A stretch of DNA of 42,810 bases from an uncultured Clostridia bacterium (lineage in GTDB: Bacteria > Bacillota_I > Bacilli_A > RF39 > UBA660). The position numbers and the translations under genes were made by a program. Positions 2,062 through 25,513 of the stretch are shown piece by piece. The first letter of the stretch is position 1. Every line of letters starts with the position of its first letter. The notes under the pieces are model-generated. The model was not told where the DNA came from and did no database searches. It was given only the letters and a program-made list of their open reading frames with translations. The DNA is taken from the NCBI GenBank assembly GCA_947168405.1, contig CAMVLU010000002.1, positions 1-42,810 on the forward strand. The letters run 5' to 3'.

Positions 2062-3123
2062 ATGAAGATTGTAAAAGTAATAGTTAATCTTGTTTATAAA
2101 ACAAAATGTATAATAGATGAAAAAAAAACATTAAAAAAATGTGATGTGAAATTGAATAAAATAGAAAAAGAAAAAATTGAAAAAGGCAATTATTCTGTAT
2201 GTAAAATTATGAAAAATACATATGATGATTTTGAACAATCAGATTATCAATATTTTGTTTCAGATGATTTTTATCAATGTAAAATGCTTCCATTATTAAA
2301 TGATGTTAATTACAATATTTTTGGTATGAGACATAAATATAGTTATTTTATGGATAAAAATTATCAAGAAAAAATTGTAGAATGTTTTAAATTTCCTAAT
2401 GTTGTAATAAGAAAAATTAATAATGAATTTTATGATTCAAATTATAATTATATTACTGCAAAGGAAGCATTATCTAAAGTAATTAAATATGAAAAATTGG
2501 TATTTAAAAAATCTTTGGGATATGGTCATGGTAAAGGAGTTGTGCTTGTAGAAAAAAAACACTTTGCTAGTTTGTTAGATAATTTTAGTAATAATTTTGT
2601 AGTTCAAGATATAGTTGTTCAACATAGTGAGTTGGCTAAATTTAATTCTACATCTGTTAATATTATAAGAATTACATCTCTTTATTTAAAGGGACATGTA
2701 TATATTTTAGGATCAATACTACGTATAGGTCCTCCTGGGTCTTTTTGTGATCTTGTTAATAGCAAAGATGAAACTCCTCGAATTGTAGCAATTGATAATA
2801 ATGGTAATATTCATGGTCCTGCAATTTCACCTGTTACTTGTAAAAAATACAGTAATATATATGGTAAAACTATTAATGGTAAAATTCCTTTTTATGAAAA
2901 AATTATTGAAAGCATTAAGGAACAACATAAAAAATTTATTCATCATAGAATTATTGGTTGGGATATTACAATTGACAACAACAATAATATAATATGCATG
3001 GAATTTAATTCTCTTGTTCCTGGTATAATTCAAACGCAAATGGTTTGTGGACCTATTTTTTCTCAATTATCTAATAATAATTTACCATTATATGATGAAA
3101 TAATTAATATTGATAAAAATTAG
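2062..3123 (+). CDS. second ATP-grasp-like enzyme (sugar-transfer-associated type), tentative
   Basis: VFKKSLGYGHGKGVVLVEK, VVQDIVVQHSELAKFNSTSVNIIRITS and IIGWDITIDNNNNIICMEFNS resemble the nucleotide-binding and C-terminal strands of ATP-grasp ligases. Lies in the glycan operon 2 nt after the previous gene. Confidence 0.5.
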   Translation: MKIVKVIVNLVYKTKCIIDEKKTLKKCDVKLNKIEKEKIEKGNYSVCKIMKNTYDDFEQSDYQYFVSDDFYQCKMLPLLNDVNYNIFGMRHKYSYFMDKNYQEKIVECFKFPNVVIRKINNEFYDSNYNYITAKEALSKVIKYEKLVFKKSLGYGHGKGVVLVEKKHFASLLDNFSNNFVVQDIVVQHSELAKFNSTSVNIIRITSLYLKGHVYILGSILRIGPPGSFCDLVNSKDETPRIVAIDNNGNIHGPAISPVTCKKYSNIYGKTINGKIPFYEKIIESIKEQHKKFIHHRIIGWDITIDNNNNIICMEFNSLVPGIIQTQMVCGPIFSQLSNNNLPLYDEIINIDKN

Positions 3124-3137
3124 AAGGGAAGTAATAT

Positions 3138-3938
3138 ATGAAATTATGTGTTTTAATATCTACTATGTTTTGTGAAGATGTAAAAAAACTTATTGATAAT
3201 ATGAATATAAGAACTGATTGTATAGTTGTTAATCAATGTGATATTTCAAAAGAAAAAAAAGAAACAATTGAATACAAAGGAAAAATAATAACATTTATTT
3301 CAACTAATGAGCGTGGCTTAAGTAAAAGTAGAAACAAAGCATTAAGTAATGTTTCAAATGATGTAGATGTTGTAATATTTACTGATGATGATATTTTGTT
3401 TATTGATGATTATGAAAATAATATATTAGATGTGTATAAAGATGATAATGTTGATGGATGTGCATTTAGTATTATTAGATTAAATGGAAAAGTTAATAAA
3501 AAACTATCAAAAAAAATTAATAAGATAACAATGTTAAGAGTATGTTCTGTTTCTATGACGTTTCGCTATAAATCTATAAAAAACATGAAATTTGATGTAA
3601 ATTTTGGAACTGGATCAGGAAAATATACTTTGGGAGAAGAAAATATATTTATATGTGATTGCTTAAACAATAAATTAAACATTATTAGTAATACATATGT
3701 TATGTGTAAAGAATGTAATATAAGGAAATCAACCTGGTATAAAGGTATGAACAAAGAGTATTTTATTTCAAGAGGTGCTGTATTTAGAAGATTATATAAC
3801 TGTTTATCTTGGATATTTATTTTAGATTTTGCTTTAAGAAAAAGGAAAAGATATAAAGACAATATGTCTACAAGAACTGCATTAGAATATATGTTTTATG
3901 GCAGCAAACAAATCAAGAAGGAAAATAAAAATGGTTAA
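3138..3938 (+). CDS. GT-A fold glycosyltransferase
   Basis: LCVLISTMF...IVVNQCD...RGLSKSRNKAL...VVIFTDDDILFIDDY shows a Rossmann-like N-terminus with a DDD motif. RBS is GGGAAG. Confidence 0.7.
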   Translation: MKLCVLISTMFCEDVKKLIDNMNIRTDCIVVNQCDISKEKKETIEYKGKIITFISTNERGLSKSRNKALSNVSNDVDVVIFTDDDILFIDDYENNILDVYKDDNVDGCAFSIIRLNGKVNKKLSKKINKITMLRVCSVSMTFRYKSIKNMKFDVNFGTGSGKYTLGEENIFICDCLNNKLNIISNTYVMCKECNIRKSTWYKGMNKEYFISRGAVFRRLYNCLSWIFILDFALRKRKRYKDNMSTRTALEYMFYGSKQIKKENKNG

Positions 3939-5921: not shown

Positions 5922-7320
5922 AGAAAAGCAACTTATAAAAAATTCAGCTATAATAGGTATAGGTAGACTTTTACCAAAATTGATATCTGTTATTACTTTA
6001 CCTATTATTACAAGTCAATTAACGAAAACAGAATTTGGAATATATGATTTGGTAAGTACCTTAGTTATGTTTTTGTTACCAATTGCTACTTTGCAAGTTC
6101 ATTCGGCTGGATTTAGGTTTTTAATTGATGCAAGAAATGATAAAGAAAAAATAACTAAAATTGTTACAAATATATTTGCTATAGTTATTCCAATATCTGT
6201 TGTAGTGTCATTTTCATTGTTTTTTATTCTCCGTAATATATCTTCTATAACAAAATTTTCAATTTGTATGTATTTGATTTCTGATATCTTATTTCTATGT
6301 ATATCCCAAATTTGTAGAGGATTATCATATAATAAAATCTACTCTATAGGTTCTGTGATTGTTTCAACATTAAATGCATTAGGAATTGTTTTTTCTTTAA
6401 TTATAAATGATTATGGAATAACTGGTATAATTATTTCTTTATGTGTTTCACATATTATTGCATTGATTTTTATATTTTTTAAAATCAAAATATTTAGATA
6501 TATAAATTTAAAATATATTTCTAAGTCAGACATAAAAGAAATTATAAAATATTCATGGCCAATGATTCCTAATAATTTATCAGTATGGATATTAAACTTA
6601 TCTGATAGAGTTGTTATATCGTCTTTTTTGGGGTTAGAAGCTAATGCAATATATGCTGTTGCCAATAAGATACCACAGTTTTTATCTATTGCTCAATCTA
6701 TTTTTGTGATGGCATGGCAAGAAAATGCTTCAATTGCTATTAAAGATAAGGATGCAGATTTATATTTTTCCAATATGTTTAAAAAAATATTTAAATTAAT
6801 GTTTTCAGTAACAATTATTTTAATTGCATTTACACCAATAATATTTAAAATTTTGATTAGAGGAGATTATAGTAAAGCATATGTTCAAATCCCAATCTTG
6901 TTCTTAGCAATGTTTTTTAATTGTATGGCATCGTTTTTTGGTGGTATCTATATAGCTTATAAACAAACAAAAAAAATTGGTACTAGTACAATGGTTATTG
7001 CGGGAATAAATTTACTAATAGATTTAGTTCTTGTTAAGTTAATTGGTATAACTGCTGGTTCATTATCAACATTAGTTGCATACTTGTGTTTATATATTTA
7101 TAGATGTATAGACGTGAAGAATTTTCAAAAAATAAATTTGTTTTATAAAATGCAAATTATATTTATCGCAATAATAATATTTATGTTAATATTATGTTTT
7201 TGTCAAAATATGATTTTAAATATTATTAATATTATTATTGGTATTATTTTATTTGCTTATTGTAATGTTGATATTATAAATTTAATAATTAAGAAAATAA
7301 AAAAGGTGATTAAAATATGA
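5914..7320 (+). CDS. wzx: Wzx-type polysaccharide flippase (MOP/PST family)
   Basis: 468 aa with about 12-14 TM segments. The N-terminus LIKNSAIIGIGRLLPKLISVITLPIITSQLTKTEFGIYDL is typical of Wzx. Overlaps wzy by 8 nt. Confidence 0.8.
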   Translation: MNREKQLIKNSAIIGIGRLLPKLISVITLPIITSQLTKTEFGIYDLVSTLVMFLLPIATLQVHSAGFRFLIDARNDKEKITKIVTNIFAIVIPISVVVSFSLFFILRNISSITKFSICMYLISDILFLCISQICRGLSYNKIYSIGSVIVSTLNALGIVFSLIINDYGITGIIISLCVSHIIALIFIFFKIKIFRYINLKYISKSDIKEIIKYSWPMIPNNLSVWILNLSDRVVISSFLGLEANAIYAVANKIPQFLSIAQSIFVMAWQENASIAIKDKDADLYFSNMFKKIFKLMFSVTIILIAFTPIIFKILIRGDYSKAYVQIPILFLAMFFNCMASFFGGIYIAYKQTKKIGTSTMVIAGINLLIDLVLVKLIGITAGSLSTLVAYLCLYIYRCIDVKNFQKINLFYKMQIIFIAIIIFMLILCFCQNMILNIINIIIGIILFAYCNVDIINLIIKKIKKVIKI

Positions 7321-8138
7321 AAATAGGAATATGTTATTCTGATGTAAATAATATGGGTGATGTTTTAAATAAAAATTTAATTGAAAAAGTATTTAATTGT
7401 AAAGTTATCAGGAAATCACACTATTCAGCTGATATGATAGCGATAGGAAGTGGATTAAAAATATATTTATATGAAAAAAAAATTATTAAAAATATTAGAA
7501 AAAAAATAAATGGATTATTAAAACCTACAGTATATGTGTGGGGAACAGGATTTATTAATTATGCCCATGGAGATGAAAAATTTTATAAGAAAAATATGAT
7601 ATTTAAAGCTGTTAGAGGAAATTTAACAAAAAATAGAGTTGAAAAAATTATAGGAAGAAAATTAAATATTCCAACTGCTGATGGTGGATTGCTAGCATCA
7701 TATTTTATTGATAAAATTCCTCAAAAAAAATATGATGTTGGCATTATAGCTCATTTTCGTGAAAAAGAATGCAAAGAGTTTCAATGGTTATTAGAAAAGT
7801 TTGATAATTCAACATTTATAGATGTTCAAGATTCACCTGAAAATGTTACAAAGAAAATAGCAGAATGCAAAACTATTATTTCAAGTAGCCTTCACGGATT
7901 AATTATTTCTGATAGCTTAAATATTCCAAATATACATATTGTTGTATCTGATAAGCTTATTGGCGATGGGTATAAATTTGATGATTATTATTCATCATAT
8001 AATTTAAAACATGAATATATTAAATCATCTGACATACCATCTTTAACATTAGATAAAATTATTAAAAATTATAAAATTTCTAAAAATATGGTAGATGAGA
8101 AGAAGAAACAATTGATAGATTGTTTTCCATTCAAGTAA
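7317..8138 (+). CDS. polysaccharide pyruvyl transferase
   Basis: MKIGICYSDVNNMGDVLN...IGSGL...VWGTGF...AVRGNLT...IISSSLHGLIISDSLNIPNIHI matches the PS_pyruv_trans pattern. ATGA overlap with the wzx stop. Confidence 0.7.
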   Translation: MKIGICYSDVNNMGDVLNKNLIEKVFNCKVIRKSHYSADMIAIGSGLKIYLYEKKIIKNIRKKINGLLKPTVYVWGTGFINYAHGDEKFYKKNMIFKAVRGNLTKNRVEKIIGRKLNIPTADGGLLASYFIDKIPQKKYDVGIIAHFREKECKEFQWLLEKFDNSTFIDVQDSPENVTKKIAECKTIISSSLHGLIISDSLNIPNIHIVVSDKLIGDGYKFDDYYSSYNLKHEYIKSSDIPSLTLDKIIKNYKISKNMVDEKKKQLIDCFPFK

Positions 8139-8158
8139 TTTATAATGGAGGAAATGTT

Positions 8159-8878
8159 ATGCTTTTAAAAAAATATATATATAAGATATTAAAAAAAATA
8201 TTTGATTATAATCATTCTGATAGTAAAACATTTATAAAATATTTGAGAAAAAACCATGTGTCTGTTGGAGATTATACTTATTTTTTTAATCCTAGAAAAA
8301 CTATTATAGATATAAAAAATGGTAAATTTATTACAATAGGTAGTAACTGTAAAATTACGCAAGGAGTGGTAATTTTGGCTCATGATTTTAGTTATTCTAT
8401 TTTAAGACCTATATATAATGAGATTCCTAAAAAATGTGCTGAGACAATTATTGGAGATAATGTTTTTGTAGGAATAAATTCAATTATATTAATGGGAAGT
8501 AAAATAGGTAATAATTGTATAATTGGAGCCGGATCTGTAGTTAGTGGTAAAATACCTGATAATGAAGTATGGGCAGGTAATCCTGCTAGGTTTATTTGTA
8601 CTTTAGATGATTATTATAAAAAGTGTAAATCCAAATATGAAGATGGTGCTATCTTAACTGTAAAAAAATATAGAGAAAAACTTAAAAGAAATCCGACAAT
8701 ACAAGAGTTACATTTTTTTAGTTTATTATTTTTAAATAATGACATTTCAATCGATGCAAAAGAACAAATATCTAAAATGCCTTTTCATGGAGATAAATTT
8801 GATGAAGTAGTAGAAGATAGTTTAAAATATAAAAGTAAATATGATAGTTATGATGATTTTATTAAAAGTATAAAATAA
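8159..8878 (+). CDS. hexapeptide-repeat (LbH) O-acetyltransferase
   Basis: IGDNVFVGINSIILMGSKIGNNCIIGAGSVVSGKIPDNEVWAGNPARFI. GGAGG RBS (8147-8151) precedes ATG 8159 (the ORF opens at 8120). Confidence 0.85.
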   Translation: MLLKKYIYKILKKIFDYNHSDSKTFIKYLRKNHVSVGDYTYFFNPRKTIIDIKNGKFITIGSNCKITQGVVILAHDFSYSILRPIYNEIPKKCAETIIGDNVFVGINSIILMGSKIGNNCIIGAGSVVSGKIPDNEVWAGNPARFICTLDDYYKKCKSKYEDGAILTVKKYREKLKRNPTIQELHFFSLLFLNNDISIDAKEQISKMPFHGDKFDEVVEDSLKYKSKYDSYDDFIKSIK

Positions 8879-11833: not shown

Positions 11834-14482
11834 ATGGATATAATTAGTAATGCAAAATTAAAAAGAAATTTTCTTTTTTGTTTGTTATCAAATATAGAAA
11901 TTGATTTGAGAAAGAATATTGTTGATAATGATAAAATAGAAAAAAATTCAAGTATATTAGAAAAATTGAAAAATAGATATAAAGATGATAATAATAATGA
12001 AACCAATGACATAATGTTTTTAATAAATTATGCAGATTTAGGCGATTATATTCAAATTTTAAATTCTAATTGTTTGAAATTTATTAATTCTAAAATGGTA
12101 AAAAAACTCACCGATGAGATAGAGAAAATTGTACCAACAAGAAATAGAATTATGCATATTAGACCTTTGGAACCAAACGACGATAAATTAATAATTGATT
12201 TTGTAAATAAAATGAATAAATTTTCTGATATTATAAATTTTTCAAATACAATTTCAGAATACAATAAAATAAAAGAAGATCCTGATTATTTGCTTTCTGT
12301 TGTACCAAATATAATAATAAAAGAAAAGCAAAAAATTAAGCACAATCTGCCAATGGTTGATTATGATGATACAGGTTTTATTGGCAGGAACAAGGATAAA
12401 GATGAATTAAAGAAAAAAATAACTGGTCCATATCCCGTTATTTCAGTTATAGGTGTTGGTGGAATAGGAAAAACTTCTCTTGTTTTAAGTTGCTTATATG
12501 AAATGCTAGATGAAGAAGCTATATTTAATACTATTATTTGGATAACATTAAAAACAAAAGGACTTTATAATGGTGATTTTAAAGAAATTAAAGATGTTAT
12601 TTTAAATTTAGATGAAAATTTTAAAAAGATAAATTATGATTTTCAAAATGATAACATATCTAATATTAATGATATATTATCATATATGAGTAATAATAAA
12701 ACTCTTCTTGTTATAGATAATTTAGAAACATTGAGTAATGATAAAACAATAATAAAATTATTCGAAGAAATACCAAATGGATCTAAAATTTTAATTACAT
12801 CTAGAATTGGCTTTGGTAATTATGAGCAAAGTTTTAAACTTGAAGCATTAAATAATAAAGAATCTTTGGATTATTTTAGAAAATTAGCAAAAGTATATAA
12901 AGTAAAATCTTTAATAAAACAAACAGATAATAGTTTAGAAAAATATTTGGAAAAATTAAATAATAATCCTCTAGCAATTAAATGGTTTATTATCAATGTT
13001 GGAAAGGGAATGGTACCTAGTGAAATTTTGAATAATCATATATCAGATTTAACTGATTTTTGTTTATCAAATATTTATGATAAATTATCAGAAGATGCAA
13101 AATATATATTAAGAATTATATTAATAAAAACTAACAAATGTGGGTTAGCAGAATTATTGTATTTATGTGAACTTAGTCATGATAGATGTTTAAATTCAAT
13201 TAATGAGTTATTTACAAGCAACTTTTTAGTACAAAATGATGATTTTAGTTATTCTATATTAGATTTTGCTGTTAATTATATTCAAAATAAAAAAGGAATC
13301 TTTAATTATGAGATAGATAGTAATATTCAAACAAAAATTAATAAATTAAATGGAAGTTTGGAGAATTTAAAAAATAATATTCATTTAGTTAATGAGTATC
13401 ATCCTTTGTCTCTTTTTCCCAAAACAAATGATGAAAGAATTGCAACACTATATATGTTAAAGGCTATAGAATGTTCCAAAAACAAAAATTATTCAGAGGT
13501 AGATGAATTTATAAGTTTAGCACAAAATGCAACTTTTTCTTTCTCTGATATATATAAAATTGCAGGTTACATATATTCTAAATATGATAGCATTAAATCA
13601 GAAAATTTTTATAATATTGCAATAAATAGAGCCGAAAATAAAGCACCTGTATACTATTTTTTTGCAGGTTCATTAATTAATAATCAAAAATATGAAATGG
13701 CAGAAGAAGTAATAAAAAAAGCAATCGAATTAGAACCAGATAATAGTCTAATTAAGCTAAGGTATGCTAGATTAGAGAAAATGCAAAATAAATTTAATAT
13801 ATCTTTAAGAATGTTATCAGATATAGATAATAATAGTTTCAATGAATATGAAAGTAAGATGGAAGTAAAATATATTTTTGAAATGATTGATACTAGAATA
13901 AGATATGCTGAATCGTTACTTGAAAATGATAAGGAATTGTCATTTTCTAATATATTAGAAACTTTGAAATTCTTGAGTCACTGTAAGACTAGTTTATTTG
14001 ACTTTACCATATATAATTCACTTTTTAAATTGTGTCATATATATATAAGACTTTTATCGAATTCAAATTTTGATACGAAAGAATTTATTGATTTTATATT
14101 TCATTATCATTCATACATATTAGCAGCAAAAAATGGTCATAAAAAAGAGCATTTGTTTGAAAGCGACTTAGATTGTTTGTGTCAGAGATTATCTGATGAC
14201 GAATCAAAAAAGATTAATGATATTTTTAATTATAATGGTTCAATTAAAGATATAAATTATGGATATATTTGCTCGTTAAAAAAAGAAAGAGGATATGGTT
14301 TTATAACACCATCTACATATTCATATCAAACTATATTTTTTCATTGTAGTCAATTTAAAGGTGATTTTAGAAAATTAAATGCTTATGATAAAGTATCTTT
14401 TGAAATGTTTATTTCAAGTCAAAAAGTTAATGCAGTTAATGTTCGACTTTATAAATACGATAAATCAACAGATGACAATTGA
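11834..14482 (+). CDS. STAND NTPase: N-terminal Swt1-like HEPN, NB-ARC ATPase, TPR repeats, C-terminal cold-shock domain
   Basis: HEPN Rx4H motif RNRIMH (nt 12140-12157). Walker A GVGGIGKTS (12452-12478). Walker B LLVIDNLE (12704-12727). ILITSR and NNPLAIKWF (GxP-like) motifs. TPR-like KAIELEPDNSLIKLRYARL. CSD motifs RGYGFITP...IFFHCSQF...DKVSFE...AVNV (about 14255-14449). Confidence 0.85.
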   Translation: MDIISNAKLKRNFLFCLLSNIEIDLRKNIVDNDKIEKNSSILEKLKNRYKDDNNNETNDIMFLINYADLGDYIQILNSNCLKFINSKMVKKLTDEIEKIVPTRNRIMHIRPLEPNDDKLIIDFVNKMNKFSDIINFSNTISEYNKIKEDPDYLLSVVPNIIIKEKQKIKHNLPMVDYDDTGFIGRNKDKDELKKKITGPYPVISVIGVGGIGKTSLVLSCLYEMLDEEAIFNTIIWITLKTKGLYNGDFKEIKDVILNLDENFKKINYDFQNDNISNINDILSYMSNNKTLLVIDNLETLSNDKTIIKLFEEIPNGSKILITSRIGFGNYEQSFKLEALNNKESLDYFRKLAKVYKVKSLIKQTDNSLEKYLEKLNNNPLAIKWFIINVGKGMVPSEILNNHISDLTDFCLSNIYDKLSEDAKYILRIILIKTNKCGLAELLYLCELSHDRCLNSINELFTSNFLVQNDDFSYSILDFAVNYIQNKKGIFNYEIDSNIQTKINKLNGSLENLKNNIHLVNEYHPLSLFPKTNDERIATLYMLKAIECSKNKNYSEVDEFISLAQNATFSFSDIYKIAGYIYSKYDSIKSENFYNIAINRAENKAPVYYFFAGSLINNQKYEMAEEVIKKAIELEPDNSLIKLRYARLEKMQNKFNISLRMLSDIDNNSFNEYESKMEVKYIFEMIDTRIRYAESLLENDKELSFSNILETLKFLSHCKTSLFDFTIYNSLFKLCHIYIRLLSNSNFDTKEFIDFIFHYHSYILAAKNGHKKEHLFESDLDCLCQRLSDDESKKINDIFNYNGSIKDINYGYICSLKKERGYGFITPSTYSYQTIFFHCSQFKGDFRKLNAYDKVSFEMFISSQKVNAVNVRLYKYDKSTDDN

Positions 14483-14526: not shown

Positions 14527-14660
14527 CTTTATAATGGTGTAGAGCAAGGAATTAAACAAAATCGAATAAAAATGATAATTAATAAGTATGATAAAAAATG
14601 TCATTAGGAGATATACCTAATATACCTAATATTTAAATAGAAGAAGTAGAAAAAGTGTAA
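14527..14660 (+). pseudogene. decayed 3' tail of an Rpn/PD-(D/E)xK-transposase-like gene (module B)
   Basis: Reads LYNGVEQGIKQNRIKMIINKYDKK, then a frameshift, then MSLGDIPNIPNI*IEEVEKV*. This resembles the (E/Q)G-repeat and ...GLS-x-EEIEKL C-terminus of that family. Contains a stop, a frameshift and a 9-bp tandem duplication (ATACCTAAT x2). Confidence 0.45.
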
Positions 14661-14690
14661 AACAGGTGTAATGTTTTATGCTTTTCTTTT
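14656..14690 (+). terminator. terminator-like hairpin (probably ends the STAND transcript)
   Basis: TAAAACA (14658-14664), 7-nt loop, TGTTTTA (14672-14678), then CTTTTCTTTT. Confidence 0.5.
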
Positions 14691-14716
14691 ACTTTTTATA
14701 TGTCTGTTGTTATAAT
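14688..14716 (+). promoter_or_regulatory. promoter of the DUF4365-like operon
   Basis: TTTACT (14688-14693), 17-bp spacer, TGtTATAAT (14708-14716). Same architecture as 11759-11787. Confidence 0.5.
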
Positions 14717-14743
14717 AAAAATATGAGGTTTAGGTGATTTATT

Positions 14744-16534
14744 GTGGTTAATCTTGCAAGATATGTAAAAAGTTCATTTGATGAAAGTAAAGGAAATGAT
14801 TTTTTAGATTTAGTTTTAACTAGTACTAATAAAATATATTCACATTTTCCTAAATTAGATAAAGGACCTAATTTTGATGGTCATTTTGAATTGTTAGATA
14901 ATAATGGTATTCCTATAGGTAGATTTAATGTACAAATTAAAACTATGAATACTGATTATAAAAATAATAATAAAAGAGGAATTATTAGTCAATATAAGTA
15001 TTCTTGTGATACAAAAATATTTAATGCTGTAAAACATGGAATAACGCTTGATCCTTGTTATTTATTTATGGTAGATGTTGTAAATAGAAGAATATTTGGT
15101 AAATATGTTAGTTTAGAATATGTATTGTCTTTAGATATAAAAAATGAAAATAATAAAGTTATATATTTTAATGATGATGATGAAATAGTTGATGTAAATA
15201 ATTTTTATAATAATTTAGTTGATATTTATAATGATAGAAAAAATAAAATGATAAGTATTGAACAAAATAAATTTATTATTACATCTTCTATATCTGATGA
15301 AGAATTAAGTGATTTACAATTAGAATTTGATTATTTAAATAATATGTTTGACAATGAATTAAAATATATTAAGGATAAATTATTTCCTAATATTTGGAAG
15401 TTTGGTATAGCTTACATGAAAGAAGAAAAATCTCTTGGTGTTGGTATTTATTATATTAAAAAAGGGAAAAATGGAGAATTTATAAAATATTTAAATGATG
15501 AAACATTTGGTAATTGTTCATTTATTACTATAAGTAATAAAACAAAAATAAGAGATTTAATTAATGGATTTATATCTTCAATTTTAGAAAGATGTTATGA
15601 ATATAGGATTATACCTATTGAATATGTTGATAATGAGGTATTATTTGAAATATTATTTTATTTTTTAGATGAAATATCTAAAGTATATAAAGAGGTGGAA
15701 AATAAAAATAAATTAGATGTTTATTATAAAGATGAAGAAGACATTAATATAATAAAAAATTATTATTATGGAATAGAGAAATATATTAAATATACATTTG
15801 GAAAAGCATTTAATGTAGTAACTACTACTAAAAGTAAATATTCTATGTATAAAATTGATCCTTTAGACGAACCTTTTTCTGGAAACGATATGTACGAAAA
15901 AGAAAAACTTCTTATAAATTGTTTTAAAGAATTAAATGATGATATGTTTGACAATAAAATAATAGTTGATGGAAATCATTTTTATGAGTTAATTAAAGAA
16001 TCTATTTATGAATTAGAAAGAAGAAATATAAAAAAAGTAAAAAGAGTTTGGATACCTAAAGATTGGAACGATTATATAAATAGAGTAGAAAATGGAAACA
16101 GATACAAGATAGAAAATACTTTTAAAATATCAGATTATAATTATAATATTAAAAAATTATTATCTATATTTCCTTCTCAATATAACGATTTTGTAAGTAA
16201 AATAAATAAAAAATTATCATTAAAAAATAAATATGTATGTGGTTATTCTAATGATGACCAATATTTATTGAGATATGAAAAATATGAAAGTAATAAATTT
16301 GAAATTATAATAGATAACCATATTTTAAATAATAAAGTTGCTGAAATTACACAAGATATGAAAAATAAAAAATTTATTAGTAGAACAGATGTTTCAATTC
16401 CATATGCTTTTAAAGATATGACTCTTTTAATAAATTTAAACTATGTATTTATTAGACAATTTTGTTTTATAAATGGTATCAAGGATATTGATTTAAATGA
16501 TCAAAATATATTATTTGATATGATAGGAGATTAA
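14744..16534 (+). CDS. 596-aa protein with a DUF4365-like (PD-(D/E)xK restriction-endonuclease-fold) N-terminal domain; remaining ~450 aa unrecognised
   Basis: NFDGHFELLDNNGIPIGRFNVQIKT (D45 ... Q64-I-K66, nt 14876-14941), then DPCYLFMVDVVNRRIFGKYVS, matches the D..vQvK / vlvvvD pattern of DUF4365. GTG start lies 6 nt after an AGGTGA RBS. Confidence 0.7.
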   Translation: MVNLARYVKSSFDESKGNDFLDLVLTSTNKIYSHFPKLDKGPNFDGHFELLDNNGIPIGRFNVQIKTMNTDYKNNNKRGIISQYKYSCDTKIFNAVKHGITLDPCYLFMVDVVNRRIFGKYVSLEYVLSLDIKNENNKVIYFNDDDEIVDVNNFYNNLVDIYNDRKNKMISIEQNKFIITSSISDEELSDLQLEFDYLNNMFDNELKYIKDKLFPNIWKFGIAYMKEEKSLGVGIYYIKKGKNGEFIKYLNDETFGNCSFITISNKTKIRDLINGFISSILERCYEYRIIPIEYVDNEVLFEILFYFLDEISKVYKEVENKNKLDVYYKDEEDINIIKNYYYGIEKYIKYTFGKAFNVVTTTKSKYSMYKIDPLDEPFSGNDMYEKEKLLINCFKELNDDMFDNKIIVDGNHFYELIKESIYELERRNIKKVKRVWIPKDWNDYINRVENGNRYKIENTFKISDYNYNIKKLLSIFPSQYNDFVSKINKKLSLKNKYVCGYSNDDQYLLRYEKYESNKFEIIIDNHILNNKVAEITQDMKNKKFISRTDVSIPYAFKDMTLLINLNYVFIRQFCFINGIKDIDLNDQNILFDMIGD

Positions 16535-16551
16535 AATAAGGAGGTGAAGTA

Positions 16552-16839
16552 ATGGAAAGACCTATAGGAGTTGAAGCTCAAAATAAAGCTATTGAATTTG
16601 AGCATATTCTTAGAAATGTGTATGGAAATGTTTATTTAAATTCATCTGATGAATTAAGAAATAGTTTATATGATAAACTAGTAGAAGTTAATTTATCAAG
16701 TAGTAAGAATAATAAACAAATAGAATTTATTAATAAGTATTTTTATCTTGAAGGAGAATCTATTGATTCTATATTAGAGAGAGAAGATGGAATAGAATTA
16801 TTAGATGAAATAAAAAAAGATTTAAAAGAGATAATATAA
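16552..16839 (+). CDS. 95-aa acidic protein, unknown function, translationally linked to the upstream gene
   Basis: Strong RBS AAGGAGGTGA 6 nt before the ATG and a 17-nt gap after the upstream stop. E/D-rich. No family recognised. Confidence 0.7.
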   Translation: MERPIGVEAQNKAIEFEHILRNVYGNVYLNSSDELRNSLYDKLVEVNLSSSKNNKQIEFINKYFYLEGESIDSILEREDGIELLDEIKKDLKEII

Positions 16840-16892
16840 AGAAATAAATTTATTTTGAAAAAAATTTATTTTTTTTTTTTTATTAAAAAATT

Positions 16893-16918
16893 AAAAAGGT
16901 GAACATTTTTCACCTTTT
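16893..16918 (+). terminator. terminator hairpin of the two-gene operon
   Basis: AAAAGGTGAA (16894-16903), loop CATTT, TTCACCTTTT (16909-16918). Confidence 0.5.
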
Positions 16919-18043: not shown

Positions 18044-19812
18044 TGGAGGTTTAAATGAATTATTATAATAATATCAAAGAAAAGTTGATAAATAATGAAA
18101 TAGTAAAAAGAGTAAAAGATTATAGTAAAAATAAAAGTGATTTAGATACGTATTATGAAGTAGGTAAATTACTTGTTGATGCTGGTAAACATTATGGAGA
18201 AGGAATAATTAAACAATATTCCTTTAAATTAACAAATGAATTAGGTAAAGGATATACACAATCTAGATTAAGATATATAAGAAGATTTTATCTAGTGTTT
18301 TCAAAATGTCCGACACTGTCGGATAAATTAACTTATTCTCATTATTGTGAAATAATGTGGTTTGATGAAGATAAAATGAATTACTATATAAATATATCTT
18401 TGAAACAAATGTTAAGTGTTAGACAATTACGTCAAAAAATTAAATCAAATGAATATGAAAGATTACCAATTGAATCTAGAAATAAGTTAATTAATAAAGA
18501 AGAAAAAGAATTAGTCGATTTTATTCCTAATCCTATTATTATAAAAAATAAATATAATACCAACGAAATAAGTGAAAAAGTATTAAAGCAATTAATACTT
18601 GAAGATATATCTAGTTTTTTAAAAGAATTAGGAGAAGGATTTTGTTTTATCGATTCAGAATATAAAATAAAAATAGGAGATAGTTATAATTATATAGATT
18701 TATTGTTATTTAATATTAAATATAATTGTTATATTGTAATAGAATTAAAAGCAACAGAATTAAAGAAAGAACATATAGGACAAATACAAGTTTATATGAA
18801 TTATATAGATAAAAGTGTAAAAGAAATATTTAATAATAAAACAATAGGATTAATTATATGTAAAAAAGATAATAAGTTTATTATTGAGTATTCTAGTGAT
18901 CCGAGAATTTATACAAGAGTTTATAAATTGATGGAGGTTTAAATGAATTATTATAATAATATCAAAGAAAAGTTGATAAATAATGAAATAGTAAAAAGAG
19001 TAAAAGATTATAGTAAAAATAAAAGTGATTTAGATACGTATTATGAAGTAGGTAAATTACTTGTTGATGCTGGTAAACATTATGGAGAAGGAATAATTAA
19101 ACAATATTCCTTTAAATTAACAAATGAATTAGGTAAAGGATATACACAATCTAGATTAAGATATATAAGAAGATTTTATCTAGTGTTTTCAAAATGTCCG
19201 ACACTGTCGGATAAATTAACTTATTCTCATTATTGTGAAATAATGTGGTTTGATGAAGATAAAATGAATTACTATATAAATATATCTTTGAAACAAATGT
19301 TAAGTGTTAGACAATTACGTCAAAAAATTAAATCAAATGAATATGAAAGATTACCAATTGAATCTAGAAATAAGTTAATTAATAAAGAAGAAAAAGAATT
19401 AGTCGATTTTATTCCTAATCCTATTATTATAAAAAATAAATATAATACCAACGAAATAAGTGAAAAAGTATTAAAGCAATTAATACTTGAAGATATATCT
19501 AGTTTTTTAAAAGAATTAGGAGAAGGATTTTGTTTTATCGATTCAGAATATAAAATAAAAATAGGAGATAGTTATAATTATATAGATTTATTGTTATTTA
19601 ATATTAAATATAATTGTTATATTGTAATAGAATTAAAAGCAACAGAATTAAAGAAAGAACATATAGGACAAATACAAGTTTATATGAATTATATAGATAA
19701 AAGTGTAAAAGAAATATTTAATAATAAAACAATAGGATTAATTATATGTAAAAAAGATAATAAGTTTATTATTGAGTATTCTAGTGATCCGAGAATTTAT
19801 ACAAGAGTTTAT
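18044..19812. repeat. perfect tandem direct duplication, period 888 bp (18044-18924 and 18932-19812)
   Basis: The unit starts at the RBS TGGAGGTTTAA and runs to ...GAGTTTAT, with a 7-bp junction AAATTGA. Every stretch I compared at offset 888 was identical. Confidence 0.9.
18055..18942 (+). CDS. YhcG/DUF1016 family PD-(D/E)xK nuclease, copy 1
   Basis: YYEVGKLLVD...GEGIIKQYSFKLTNELGKGYTQSRLRYIRRFY...SHYCEIM...GFCFIDSEYKIKIGDSYNYIDLLLFNIKYNCYIVIELKATELKKEHIGQIQVYMNY. GGAGG RBS. Confidence 0.85.
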   Translation: MNYYNNIKEKLINNEIVKRVKDYSKNKSDLDTYYEVGKLLVDAGKHYGEGIIKQYSFKLTNELGKGYTQSRLRYIRRFYLVFSKCPTLSDKLTYSHYCEIMWFDEDKMNYYINISLKQMLSVRQLRQKIKSNEYERLPIESRNKLINKEEKELVDFIPNPIIIKNKYNTNEISEKVLKQLILEDISSFLKELGEGFCFIDSEYKIKIGDSYNYIDLLLFNIKYNCYIVIELKATELKKEHIGQIQVYMNYIDKSVKEIFNNKTIGLIICKKDNKFIIEYSSDPRIYTRVYKLMEV

Positions 19813-19824
19813 GTTTTAAAATAA
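18943..19824 (+). CDS. YhcG/DUF1016 family PD-(D/E)xK nuclease, copy 2
   Basis: Identical to copy 1 over the first 290 aa. Only the last residues differ (VLK* versus KLMEV*). Confidence 0.85.
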   Translation: MNYYNNIKEKLINNEIVKRVKDYSKNKSDLDTYYEVGKLLVDAGKHYGEGIIKQYSFKLTNELGKGYTQSRLRYIRRFYLVFSKCPTLSDKLTYSHYCEIMWFDEDKMNYYINISLKQMLSVRQLRQKIKSNEYERLPIESRNKLINKEEKELVDFIPNPIIIKNKYNTNEISEKVLKQLILEDISSFLKELGEGFCFIDSEYKIKIGDSYNYIDLLLFNIKYNCYIVIELKATELKKEHIGQIQVYMNYIDKSVKEIFNNKTIGLIICKKDNKFIIEYSSDPRIYTRVYVLK

Positions 19825-23005: not shown

Positions 23006-23071
23006 GTAAAATATCTTTATTTTTCTTAATAAATATATTATTATATTAAGTTATAAATGGGAGGGTTTTAT

Positions 23072-25513
23072 ATGTATGCACTTTTGTTAAGAAAAATAAA
23101 GTATAAAAATATTATGTATTATCAAGCTCTTGATAAAGTAATAGGTGAAGAAAATTCAAATAGAGTAATTGAGGTAGTTGATAGTAAAAAGCATTTAAAT
23201 CAATTTATTCCACCGATTGAAGATAGAGGTTCTAGACTTGTTTATATTGAAATATCTAAAGAATCATATGATAATATACCACTTAATCCTATTATTGTTT
23301 TTAAAGAAAATGATAATAAACTTGAACCGGTTACTAGTCCATCAGAGTATAATGAAGTAGTACTTGCTCTTCATGATGAATATCATGATTTTCGATTAAC
23401 ACCTGATTATAGTATAGAAGTATTAATTAATGATGTTATGGATGATTTAAATGATAAAATTATTGGCCAAGATTTACCAATTAAAAAAATACTAAAAAAG
23501 ATTTATGATAATCATATGTTTTTTGAATCTGATTTATCATATGATGAAATATATAAAAATAAAAGTAATGTTTTATTAGTTGGTCCAATTGGAACAGGTA
23601 AAAGTACTATTACTAATACTATCTTTAATAATTTAACTCCTATTCCTGTTTTATATTATGAATTAACTGGTGATTTACAATATGATTTATGTGAAATATG
23701 TCGTAAATTATGGATGAGTGCTGGTGGTAATAAATATTTAGCTGAAAGAGGAATAGTTGTTTTTGATGGAATTAGTTCTTTTTCTACTAAAGGAGCAGAA
23801 GGAGAATTAATATCATTTATTCCTGAACTTCGTGAAATAATTAAAGCAAGAGATATTTATTTTAGAGATCAAAGTGATAATATTATTAAATTTGATTATT
23901 CATTTATAACAACTATCTGTGTTGTTGATATGAATTATGATTTTGAAAATGGTATTAATTATGATGATATATTTTATTCTAAAGTATTTGGTAAAAAATT
24001 TATTGAATTAGGATTTACTTATGATATGATTGAGGGTTTCTTTGATAATGAAGCTATTTTTATGGATAAAATGACAAGAGATCTTGCTATAGAAATTTTA
24101 AAAACTAAAGAAACATCACCTCTTTACAAATTAAAGAGAATGTTAGAAGGAAGAGGAAAAGTAGTTAAAATTAGTAAAGATTTTATTGATTGTTTAGTTG
24201 ATTATGGACTTGATTTTAATTTAGGATTTTATGGAATAGAAAGAATTTTAAAATATTTATTTGAAAAGAAAGATATGTCAGTTAAAACAATTAATTTTAC
24301 AGGAGATGAAGTATTTGATTTACAAATAGGAACTATTGATCCATTCCATAGTGTTGATTCAAATGAATTATATGAAGATAATGATAAAGATATAAAAGAA
24401 AATATTCATAATAAACCTAAAGTCAAAAAAGAAACAAAAATAGAAGATGGACTTGATGTAGATTTAATTAAAAGAACGATAAATGGTTTAAATGTAATAG
24501 ACGTTGTCAATAAATTAAAAGAAAAAATAATTGGCCAAGATGAACAGTTATTTATGATAGTTAATGCTTTTTATAATCATATTTTAAATAGACATAAAGG
24601 ATATACAAATGATGATATATCTGAACTTAAGAGAAATGTTTTATTAATTGCTAACACAGGAACCGGAAAAACAGCTATTTTAAAGAATTTATCAAAGATA
24701 TTTAATATACCATATGTTTTAGAAAGTGCTCCAAGATTTACTAAAGCAGGATATGTTGGAGAAGATGTTGATAGTATATTTGTTAATTTAATTAAAGCAG
24801 CAGGTGGAGATGTTGAAAAAGCAAAATACGGAATAATCATGATTGATGAACTTGATAAAATACCTGCTAATAAAACTAATGGTGTAGTAGATGTATCTGG
24901 TGCTGTTCAAGATGAATTATTAACAGCTTTAGAAGGTGATAAAAGAATTATTACAAGAAGAAATGGTTTTGGAGAAGAAAAGATAGAATTTGATACCTCT
25001 AATATCTTATTTATTGGATCTGGTGCTTTTGAAGGATTAAAAGAAATAACTGAGAAAAGAATTAAAAAAGAACAAGGTTTATCAACTATGGGATTCAAAA
25101 CAGGAAATGAGAAAAAAGAAATAATTACAGATGTTACAAATGATGATTTAGAACAATATGGAATGGGTAGACAATTTGGAGCAAGATTCCCTAGAAAAAT
25201 TAGACTTAATAATATGGATGTTGAACGTTTATATAATATTATTAATAATCAAAATGGAGGATTTGTTCATTTAAATGTTGATTCTTATTTAAAAAGTGGA
25301 ATAGTTGTTGAAATGAGTGAATCATTTAAAAGAAGTCTTGCTGAAGAAGTATTTAAATTAAAAGAAGGTGCAAGAGGTATAAGAACAGTATTTTCTGATA
25401 TCATGGATGAAATTGATCATAATATTGTAAATGGTGATGTTCAAAAAATAGTATTAGATGGAGATTGTATTCATAATCCAGAAGGTATTCAGTATATAAA
25501 AAGAAAAAAATAG
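23072..25513 (+). CDS. ClpX-like AAA+ protein with two tandem modules (degenerate N-terminal, canonical C-terminal) and no zinc-binding domain
   Basis: C-terminal module: IIGQDEQ, Walker A NTGTGKTA, pore loop AGYVGEDV, Walker B IIMIDELDKI, VSGAVQDELLTALEG, ILFIGSGAFEGL, an MGF loop and GARGIRT. N-terminal module: IIGQDLP, GPIGTGKST, but VVFDGIS and no GYVG. GGGAGGG RBS before ATG 23072 (the ORF opens at 23057). Confidence 0.8.
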   Translation: MYALLLRKIKYKNIMYYQALDKVIGEENSNRVIEVVDSKKHLNQFIPPIEDRGSRLVYIEISKESYDNIPLNPIIVFKENDNKLEPVTSPSEYNEVVLALHDEYHDFRLTPDYSIEVLINDVMDDLNDKIIGQDLPIKKILKKIYDNHMFFESDLSYDEIYKNKSNVLLVGPIGTGKSTITNTIFNNLTPIPVLYYELTGDLQYDLCEICRKLWMSAGGNKYLAERGIVVFDGISSFSTKGAEGELISFIPELREIIKARDIYFRDQSDNIIKFDYSFITTICVVDMNYDFENGINYDDIFYSKVFGKKFIELGFTYDMIEGFFDNEAIFMDKMTRDLAIEILKTKETSPLYKLKRMLEGRGKVVKISKDFIDCLVDYGLDFNLGFYGIERILKYLFEKKDMSVKTINFTGDEVFDLQIGTIDPFHSVDSNELYEDNDKDIKENIHNKPKVKKETKIEDGLDVDLIKRTINGLNVIDVVNKLKEKIIGQDEQLFMIVNAFYNHILNRHKGYTNDDISELKRNVLLIANTGTGKTAILKNLSKIFNIPYVLESAPRFTKAGYVGEDVDSIFVNLIKAAGGDVEKAKYGIIMIDELDKIPANKTNGVVDVSGAVQDELLTALEGDKRIITRRNGFGEEKIEFDTSNILFIGSGAFEGLKEITEKRIKKEQGLSTMGFKTGNEKKEIITDVTNDDLEQYGMGRQFGARFPRKIRLNNMDVERLYNIINNQNGGFVHLNVDSYLKSGIVVEMSESFKRSLAEEVFKLKEGARGIRTVFSDIMDEIDHNIVNGDVQKIVLDGDCIHNPEGIQYIKRKK

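Follow-up and report, generated by a model that had tools for sequence, protein, structure and literature searches.

A DUF4365 (DREN-type) nuclease domain on a family-specific body: a candidate self-contained defence nuclease in an exchangeable cargo slot of an uncultured Clostridia bacterium

In SPARDA systems the DREN domain is an indiscriminate DNA/RNA nuclease that is monomeric and inactive when isolated and is driven into active tetramers by an Argonaute filament (PMC12205087; 10.1101/2023.06.08.544223). The same literature describes other DREN fusions, namely DREN-TIR, DREN-P-loop NTPase-WD40 and DREN-DUF2057 (10.1101/2023.06.08.544223). In EAT16, a toxin associated with a contractile injection system (eCIS), the DxGxD...QxK motif of the N-terminal DUF4365 domain is required for toxicity (PMC11297309), which indicates that DUF4365 is a cytotoxic nuclease outside Argonaute systems as well. 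Divona, which is encoded by one gene in chromosomal integron cassettes of Vibrio and was shown to protect against phage, combines DUF4365 with an Mrr-like nuclease and crr6 (bioRxiv 10.1101/2024.07.02.601686). Here we analyse a locus on a 42,810-nt stretch of DNA from an uncultured Clostridia bacterium (GenBank assembly GCA_947168405.1, contig CAMVLU010000002.1, positions 1 to 42,810 of the forward strand; GC content 22.8%), called the window below, in which an open reading frame (ORF) with a GTG start (14744-16534, + strand) encodes a protein of 596 aa and is followed, 17 nt downstream, by an ORF for an acidic protein of 95 aa (16552-16839, + strand). A previous reading of the bare sequence, referred to as the original prediction, had located both ORFs exactly at these positions and regarded them as a nuclease effector with its small partner. 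Our results uphold the nuclease domain and speak against the partnership, and we propose, with a probability of roughly 0.55, that the 596-aa protein is a self-contained, activation-gated defence nuclease, in which a region of ~450 aa would replace APAZ and Argonaute as off-switch, sensor and driver of self-association.

The nuclease domain and the body behind it

Searches with the 596-aa protein against Pfam, PADLOC, NCBIfam, PHROGs and the PDB sequences reported nothing significant. Among its relatives, Pfam family PF14280 (DUF4365) is matched by 9 of 12 close ones (best E-value 2.3e-8) and by 54 of 67 diverse ones (best E-value 5e-10), in both sets over the region aligned to residues ~1-150 of the window protein, while 39 of the 67 match the PADLOC model Aga_REase-PNTD1-PNTD2 over its REase segment (positions ~5-135 of the 429 in the model). 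The order of secondary structures in an AlphaFold2 model of the protein (predicted local distance difference test score, pLDDT, 72.9; predicted template modelling score, pTM, 0.60; built from 12 sequences) is consistent with a DREN nuclease domain. The 14 best Foldseek neighbours of this model in the PDB are without exception DREN-APAZ chains of SPARDA (probability 0.95-1.00, best E-value 4e-4), with alignments that span the N-terminal 111-155 columns only, and a profile of the family matched the PDB sequences of two DREN-APAZ chains (9jsb_D and 9qbq_A) at positions 44-124.

The predicted metal-binding and catalytic triad consists of D45, Q64 and K66. All 67 members have D45 and Q64, and K66 is kept in 58 and replaced by R in 9; E14, D39, N43, G46, P104 and D111 are also kept throughout the family. 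The spacing of the triad (19 and 2 residues) equals that of D41/Q60/K62 in NbaSPARDA, the triple mutant of which is inactive (PMC12205087; 10.1101/2023.06.08.544223), and the equivalent motif residues Q62/K64 of TmuRE have likewise been mutated in the literature. The original prediction had recognized a DUF4365 / PD-(D/E)xK fold from three peptide strings, all of which are found in the protein (F44-D45-G46-H-F-E-L-L, F61-N-V-Q64-I-K66-T and C105-Y-L-F-M-V-D111-V), and had singled out D45 and K66 for mutagenesis; the Pfam matches of the family, the SPARDA neighbours in the fold search and the triad spacing bear out this reading, and the two residues are the right ones, being aligned with the proven DREN triad. 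On the strength of sequence and modelled fold, we assign ~aa 1-150 (14744-15193, + strand) to a DUF4365 / PD-(D/E)xK nuclease domain of the DREN type.

Behind this domain the model and the pattern of conservation delimit two further regions. The middle one (~aa 151-330; 15194-15733, + strand), present in all long members, is modelled as long helices (~151-213) and a beta-hairpin/helix module (~217-318), and exhibits the conserved motifs Q192-x3-D196-x2-N199, W218-K-x-G221, E302 and D309. The C-terminal one (~aa 331-596 and the stop codon; 15734-16534, + strand), of mixed structure in the model, is less conserved, with R434-x-W436 and Y480 kept; the last third of the protein is the least conserved part of the 67-member alignment. 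The ~450 aa that follow the nuclease domain have no match in Pfam, PADLOC, NCBIfam or PHROGs, nor among the PDB or BFVD folds. A Pfam scan of the 67 members revealed no recurring family besides DUF4365, and all Foldseek matches in the PDB other than those to the nuclease domain had E-values > 0.3. The original prediction had found no motif to place here either, and the family, sequence and fold searches agree with it. The possibility that the protein is internally duplicated, or contains another nuclease domain in degenerate form, was rejected (hhalign probabilities <1%), as was an APAZ or Argonaute domain in the C-terminal part, since the PADLOC and PDB matches break off at residue ~135-155.

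The architecture is widespread. An exhaustive profile search recovered 797 representatives (at 50% identity) with E-values <=1e-3, 604 with <=1e-10 and 234 with <=1e-30, and most of the 797 are 530-650 aa long and matched end to end; this overturned the picture of a tiny family of 11 clusters given by a word-indexed homologue search. Of the 134 representatives listed with a length of 500 aa or more, all possess the N-terminal and middle regions and 124 also the C-terminal one, while 10 carry another C-terminus of ~200 aa in place of the usual one. NCBI labels one member (P0015) simply "DUF4365 domain-containing protein"; the ~600-aa architecture is common but nameless in Pfam, PADLOC, NCBIfam and PHROGs. 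The hosts are gut Clostridia, Lachnospiraceae, Oscillospiraceae, Anaeroplasma and a Victivallales genome; the window itself groups, by its MurG (70-79% identity), with uncultured Bacilli of low GC content from herbivore guts. No viral homologues were found, either as significant matches in the BFVD fold library or in IMG/VR contigs. The genes are often truncated or split (L022, L030, L031, L095/L096, L097 at 7001-8783 and L098 at 7001-8798; the split copies include pairs of 367+214 aa and 278+334 aa), a pattern consistent with repeated inactivation of a costly gene.

The small gene and the exchangeable cargo slot

The Shine-Dalgarno sequence AGGTGA (14732-14737, + strand) lies 6 nt 5' of the GTG codon of the large gene, and the homologues start with M-N-L-G-G-Y at the same alignment position, which together support this start. 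The gap of 17 nt before the 95-aa ORF contains the ribosome-binding site (RBS) AAGGAGGTGA (16538-16547, + strand), so the close spacing and strong RBS described in the original prediction are indeed there. The promoter it had named (TTTACT-17-TATAAT with an upstream TG, extended -10 TGTTATAAT; 14688-14716, + strand) is present too; in this AT-rich stretch promoter-like pairs of hexamers show no enrichment (32 observed versus 30.8 expected), but the site falls within a block of 70 nt (14652-14721, + strand) that is 84% identical in an independent contig (L009, 6229-6297). Its terminator (given as 16893-16918) corresponds to a hairpin with a 10-bp stem at 16894-16918 (+ strand), one of 2 terminator-like matches in the scan versus 0.1 expected; it stands outside the conserved block and is specific to the right flank of the window allele. 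The fold z-score of the 3' region is -3.6.

The 95-aa protein contains 20 D/E residues and has a pI of 4.62. Five other contigs show a 3-nt indel that leaves its reading frame intact, which makes it probably a real gene. The AlphaFold2 model is all-helical (five helices) and poor (pLDDT 59); the best fold match obtained with it has an E-value of 3.9. Sequence searches yielded nothing significant in Pfam, PADLOC, NCBIfam and PHROGs (best E-value 0.088) or among the PDB sequences (best E-value 0.61), and no antitoxin, inhibitor or DNA-binding family was found in these library and PDB searches. Only one cluster of relatives, 95% identical, exists in 5.8 billion proteins, and the gene was not found in the GTDB representative genomes.

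Comparison of alleles revealed what this orphan gene belongs to. In two contigs (L011 and L012) it follows the 596-aa gene, at 98% DNA identity to the window, with homology that starts at 14729, just 5' of the Shine-Dalgarno sequence of the large gene. In three others (L008-L010) it follows unrelated genes: here the homology to the window is limited to 16542-16879 (+ strand; 95.9% over 343 nt), a block that starts inside the RBS, at 16542, and comprises the small gene, an A/U-only hairpin and a T-run, while L009 additionally shares the promoter block. The two arms occupy positions 6229-6297 and 7991-8333 in L009, and the right arm lies at 1565-1907 in L008 and L010; after the T-run, at ~16878, the alleles diverge three ways. 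Between the arms (6316-7989 in L009; also in L008 and L010) lie three genes for proteins of 248, 172 and 132 aa, none of them similar to the nuclease at a tblastn E-value <=1. The 248-aa protein has no match, the 172-aa protein has two transmembrane segments, a coiled coil and a weak DUF4231-like similarity (E-value 0.004), and the 132-aa protein is FlgT_C-like (E-value 5e-6); the three may constitute an uncharacterised membrane-effector defence module. Since the arms are shared but enclose entirely different genes, the constant promoter and the small gene frame an exchangeable cargo, i.e. either the DREN gene or the unrelated three-gene set is swapped in by recombination between two constant arms, and the pair of arms resembles a "socket" into which defence cargo is recombined.

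The original prediction had itself made conservation of the pair a touchstone of its two-gene reading, and in this it fails. A survey of family loci (48 loci, 456 kb, in 20 lineage groups at 70% identity) found a small co-directional ORF downstream in only two of the 20 groups, the window lineage and L013/L014, and the small protein of L013 is basic (pI 8.9) and unrelated to the 95-aa protein, which moreover also stands behind three other genes. The 95-aa gene is a lineage-restricted orphan that stays constant at the 3' end of the cargo slot, not a conserved partner of the nuclease.

Several further observations concern these alleles. In L008 the small gene is followed by genes for a 298-aa protein (2114-3010), which by eye resembles the Rpn/YhgA-type recombination-promoting PD-(D/E)xK nucleases, and for a 76-aa fragment (3026-3256) that is 60% identical to its C-terminus. 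L011 and L012 show the 3' end of a group II intron (Rfam RF00029, domains V/VI, E-value 4e-4, below the gathering score), which stops two bases before the window homology, directly 5' of the RBS of the large gene. A partial ORF upstream has the motifs FLGF and GMYAYYG, which resemble those of reverse transcriptases/maturases; it has no match among the PDB sequences. The sequence that follows the downstream T-run begins with GTGTG, possibly the 5' end of a second intron at the terminator. These intron-related features concern positions 3-622 and 2777-2909 of L011 and 387-489 of L012. A different genomic site for L011/L012 was considered and rejected, as the group II intron 3' end offers the best explanation for the divergence of the left flank.

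Genomic neighbourhoods and competing explanations

In the survey the family gene usually stands alone or comes last, after another gene for defence or restriction; its carriers are mobilizable or conjugative elements and defence islands. It lies 15-25 nt behind a type III-like pair in L005 (3823-9788), composed of a 635-aa N6_N4 methyltransferase and a 748-aa ResIII helicase (seemingly short for a type III Res subunit), and 15-25 nt behind a 920-aa MmeI-type enzyme in L013 (234-4797), where a Fic gene is found downstream; an add-on nuclease role behind restriction systems is a possibility in these two loci. In two of the 20 lineage groups, the DREN proteins of which are ~31% identical, the family gene is preceded by a DUF1016/YhcG gene of the same strand at a distance of 11-36 nt (L027 8863-11825, L028 3884-6846, L004 6861-9803, L020 8854-11803, L095/L096, L101 and L105). 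L027 and L028 share a block of 2,963 bp (96% identity) that encloses exactly the DUF1016 and DREN genes between otherwise unrelated flanks, and in the lineage carried by a TnpV element both L004 and L020 have DUF1016 divided between two ORFs, so that the split appears to be old and retained. Other neighbours are SIR2-DUF4020, AbiEi-like, DUF4238, ResIII and AAA_14/DUF4143 proteins, and a gene with a RelA/SpoT domain (small alarmone synthetase-like) is also found. Several members adjoin Mob_Pre, MobA or NikA-like relaxases, serine recombinases or TnpV, or lie inside a type IV secretion system (T4SS)/conjugation module. No Argonaute adjoins the gene in the window or in the 20 lineage groups, and there is no Piwi among the 25 of 141 families listed for 111 neighbouring proteins; elsewhere, the neighbours in the size range of 435-496 aa belong to ResIII, Mob_Pre, DUF4238 and AAA_14/DUF4143 or are a response regulator.

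The window itself presents a run of candidate defence genes, i.e. a STAND gene, RhuM-Fic (PDC-S23) and two copies of DUF1016 (PDC-S02), and the defence setting assumed by the original prediction finds support here and, with restriction, defence and mobility neighbours, in other lineages. The STAND gene (11834-14482) encodes a weakly HEPN_Swt1-like N-terminus (E-value 0.006), NB-ARC, TPR repeats and a C-terminal cold-shock domain (E-value 1e-12), a combination of effector and sensor that is unusual for an Avs-like protein. It is separated from the 596-aa gene by 261 nt, which hold the separate promoter of the 596-aa and 95-aa genes. A tblastn search with it found no relative in the 48 loci, and in L009 another gene lies ahead of the conserved promoter block; the suggestion that STAND gene, nuclease and small protein form a three-gene unit is therefore not borne out. 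No relative of RhuM-Fic was found in any family locus surveyed. The DUF1016/YhcG genes (18055-18942 and 18943-19824) lie head to tail and encode proteins 99.7% identical over 292 aa that differ in the last few residues only, which points to a recent tandem duplication. Further downstream (23057-25513) we note an 818-aa protein, residues 482-806 of which form a ClpX-like AAA+ module (E-value 7e-46 to solved ClpX), while the ~480 aa before it have no match; the protein has no close relative in the GTDB representative genomes.

These contexts, and the cargo slot, invite readings other than a self-contained defence nuclease. The two window genes could form a toxin-antitoxin or effector-inhibitor pair, in which the acidic 95-aa protein, translated together with a toxic DREN protein, would restrain it, for example by mimicking DNA or by inhibiting it directly, until infection sets it free. 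The tight spacing with its strong RBS, the common promoter and terminator, the low pI, the joint presence of both genes at 98% identity in L011/L012 and the small downstream ORF of L013 all agree with this; nonetheless, 18 of the 20 lineage groups lack such an ORF, that of L013 is basic and unrelated, relatives of the 95-aa gene are confined to its own lineage, and the library and PDB searches found no antitoxin-like or DNA-binding domain in the 95-aa protein. Above all, the gene is also found behind the three-gene non-nuclease cargo, under the same promoter, and a cognate antitoxin would not outlast the replacement of its toxin, so we consider the pair very improbable. A two-gene system with DUF1016/YhcG, of which the window would be a loosened version with its DUF1016 copies 1.5 kb downstream, would account for the close same-strand association in two lineage groups with strongly diverged DREN proteins (~31% identical), for the L027/L028 block that holds just these two genes, and for the DUF1016 genes near both the window allele and the alternative allele L008. 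We regard it as quite unlikely: the adjacency is confined to 2 of 20 groups, in L013, the closest relative of one of them (52% identical), the upstream position is taken by MmeI, DUF1016 abounds in defence islands as the single-gene candidate PDC-S02 and is split into two ORFs in one lineage, and the window lineage keeps it with or without the DREN gene (L008).

The 596-aa protein might also be a restriction-type nuclease, whose C-terminal ~450 aa would read modified (type IV-like) or specific DNA and which would cut directly, without an abortive or collateral step, sometimes as an accessory of a restriction-modification system. PD-(D/E)xK is the classic restriction fold, the positions behind type III-like Mod+Res genes and the MmeI-type enzyme would be natural ones, and the less conserved C-terminal half with its alternative C-terminus in 10 of 134 members would suit a specificity module. 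This reading seems unlikely to us, since the window and most lineages lack a methyltransferase next to the gene, neither Pfam nor Foldseek detected a DNA-reader fold (SRA, winged helix, TRD), and the characterised DUF4365 nucleases are all non-specific and gated by assembly. Finally, the nuclease could serve the transfer, maintenance or competition of a mobile element, for instance by exclusion of rivals or as a selfish homing-type endonuclease, as the relaxases, serine recombinases, TnpV and T4SS module beside several members might suggest. Mobile context as such does not discriminate between this and host defence, because defence genes routinely ride such elements; other members, including that of the window, reside in chromosomal islands without mobility genes in view, no terminal repeats bound the window unit (only AT-rich noise was seen), and none of the members was found in IMG/VR viral contigs. 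We give this explanation little credence.

Proposed function and comparison with known systems

For a self-contained defence nuclease the following mechanism can be envisaged. The DREN nuclease, with its Asp45-Gln64-Lys66 triad intact, would normally be silent, held off by the family-specific ~450-aa region with its conserved middle part and more variable C-terminal module. That region would sense a cue derived from the invader, a nucleic acid or a protein, and bring DREN domains together, whereupon the nuclease would be switched on and degrade nucleic acid of the invader and/or the host. The 95-aa protein would stand outside this machine. A bolder version, which we think possible but doubtful, is that the ~450-aa region is a previously unseen sensor and assembly scaffold that takes on, within one polypeptide, the tasks of APAZ and Argonaute in SPARDA: it would recognise an invader cue and polymerise so that the DREN domains tetramerise and become active. 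In that case the ~800 clusters (at 50% identity) would make up a new, widespread and Argonaute-independent family of collateral defence nucleases, and the present locus would exemplify a promoter/small-gene socket with swapping of entire defence cargos through homologous recombination.

Several points weigh against our proposal. The 596-aa protein itself does not match PF14280 even at an E-value <=1, which makes the assignment transitive and structural. The defence role, the autoinhibition and the activation by oligomerisation are deduced, and for the sensing cue and the oligomerisation the model is purely that of SPARDA. A known C-terminal fold may have been overlooked, because the AlphaFold2 model is only of moderate quality and was searched as a whole. 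The neighbour survey is qualitative, without a genome-wide statistic of defence enrichment, and some of the flanks are housekeeping genes (prfA, ftsZ). Lastly, the 17-nt coupling, the strong RBS and the shared terminator are compatible with a functional link between the two window genes that is specific to this lineage.

The DREN domain is a potent indiscriminate nuclease of DNA and RNA, in use in diagnostics, and filament assembly driven by Argonaute is its sole understood on-switch; a large family that places this domain on an unrecognised ~450-aa body, without Argonaute, implies another route of gating. At the level of domains the idea will hardly surprise a specialist; what is more striking is that the family, a candidate for a hitherto undescribed defence system of one gene in anaerobes, among them gut Bacillota, is large and unnamed, and that the cargo swap is neat: with blocks of 70 nt and ~340 nt constant and the genes between them replaced, the locus offers a natural example of the exchange of defence cargo. 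It also illustrates that tight spacing and a strong RBS are insufficient to call a toxin-partner pair.

SPARDA is among the closest of the known systems. Its DREN-APAZ proteins (NbaSPARDA, XauSPARDA, TmuRE-Ago) have the same N-terminal nuclease by Pfam family, fold (with no other significant neighbours in the PDB) and triad spacing, and both they and the present family occur in defence or mobile-element contexts. However, the 596-aa protein has no APAZ: the PADLOC match ends at model position ~156 of 429, Foldseek covers ~140 of ~400 residues, and the PDB profile match ends at position 124. The chains also differ in size (~390-460 aa for DREN-APAZ, ~600 aa here), and SPARDA has an adjoining short Argonaute (MID-PIWI), whereas the neighbours in the window are the STAND gene, the 95-aa orphan, RhuM-Fic and DUF1016. 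Among named systems of PADLOC-DB v2.0.0 the window protein has no match at an E-value <=1, and its relatives match nuclease portions only; the candidate PDC-M02A, the models of which cover ~165 aa of a nuclease domain only and belong to a multi-gene system, shows weak similarity to the nuclease domain in 4 of the 67 members (E-value ~4e-4) and none to the window protein.

Divona resembles the present family in being one polypeptide with an N-terminal DUF4365 nuclease and a further domain, but is set apart by its domain content, as neither crr6 (PF08847) nor Mrr_cat was found in the 67 members at an E-value <=0.01. EAT16 is the injected toxin of a contractile injection system, whereas no eCIS genes were found near the present family in the loci surveyed. 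The partner domains of the other DREN fusions (TIR, P-loop NTPase-WD40, DUF2057) were absent from the Pfam scan of the 67 members, and the ~600-aa architecture is not among the DREN fusions described in the SPARDA literature. With those fusions the family nevertheless shares a principle, the joining of a DREN effector to a different putative sensor or regulatory module.

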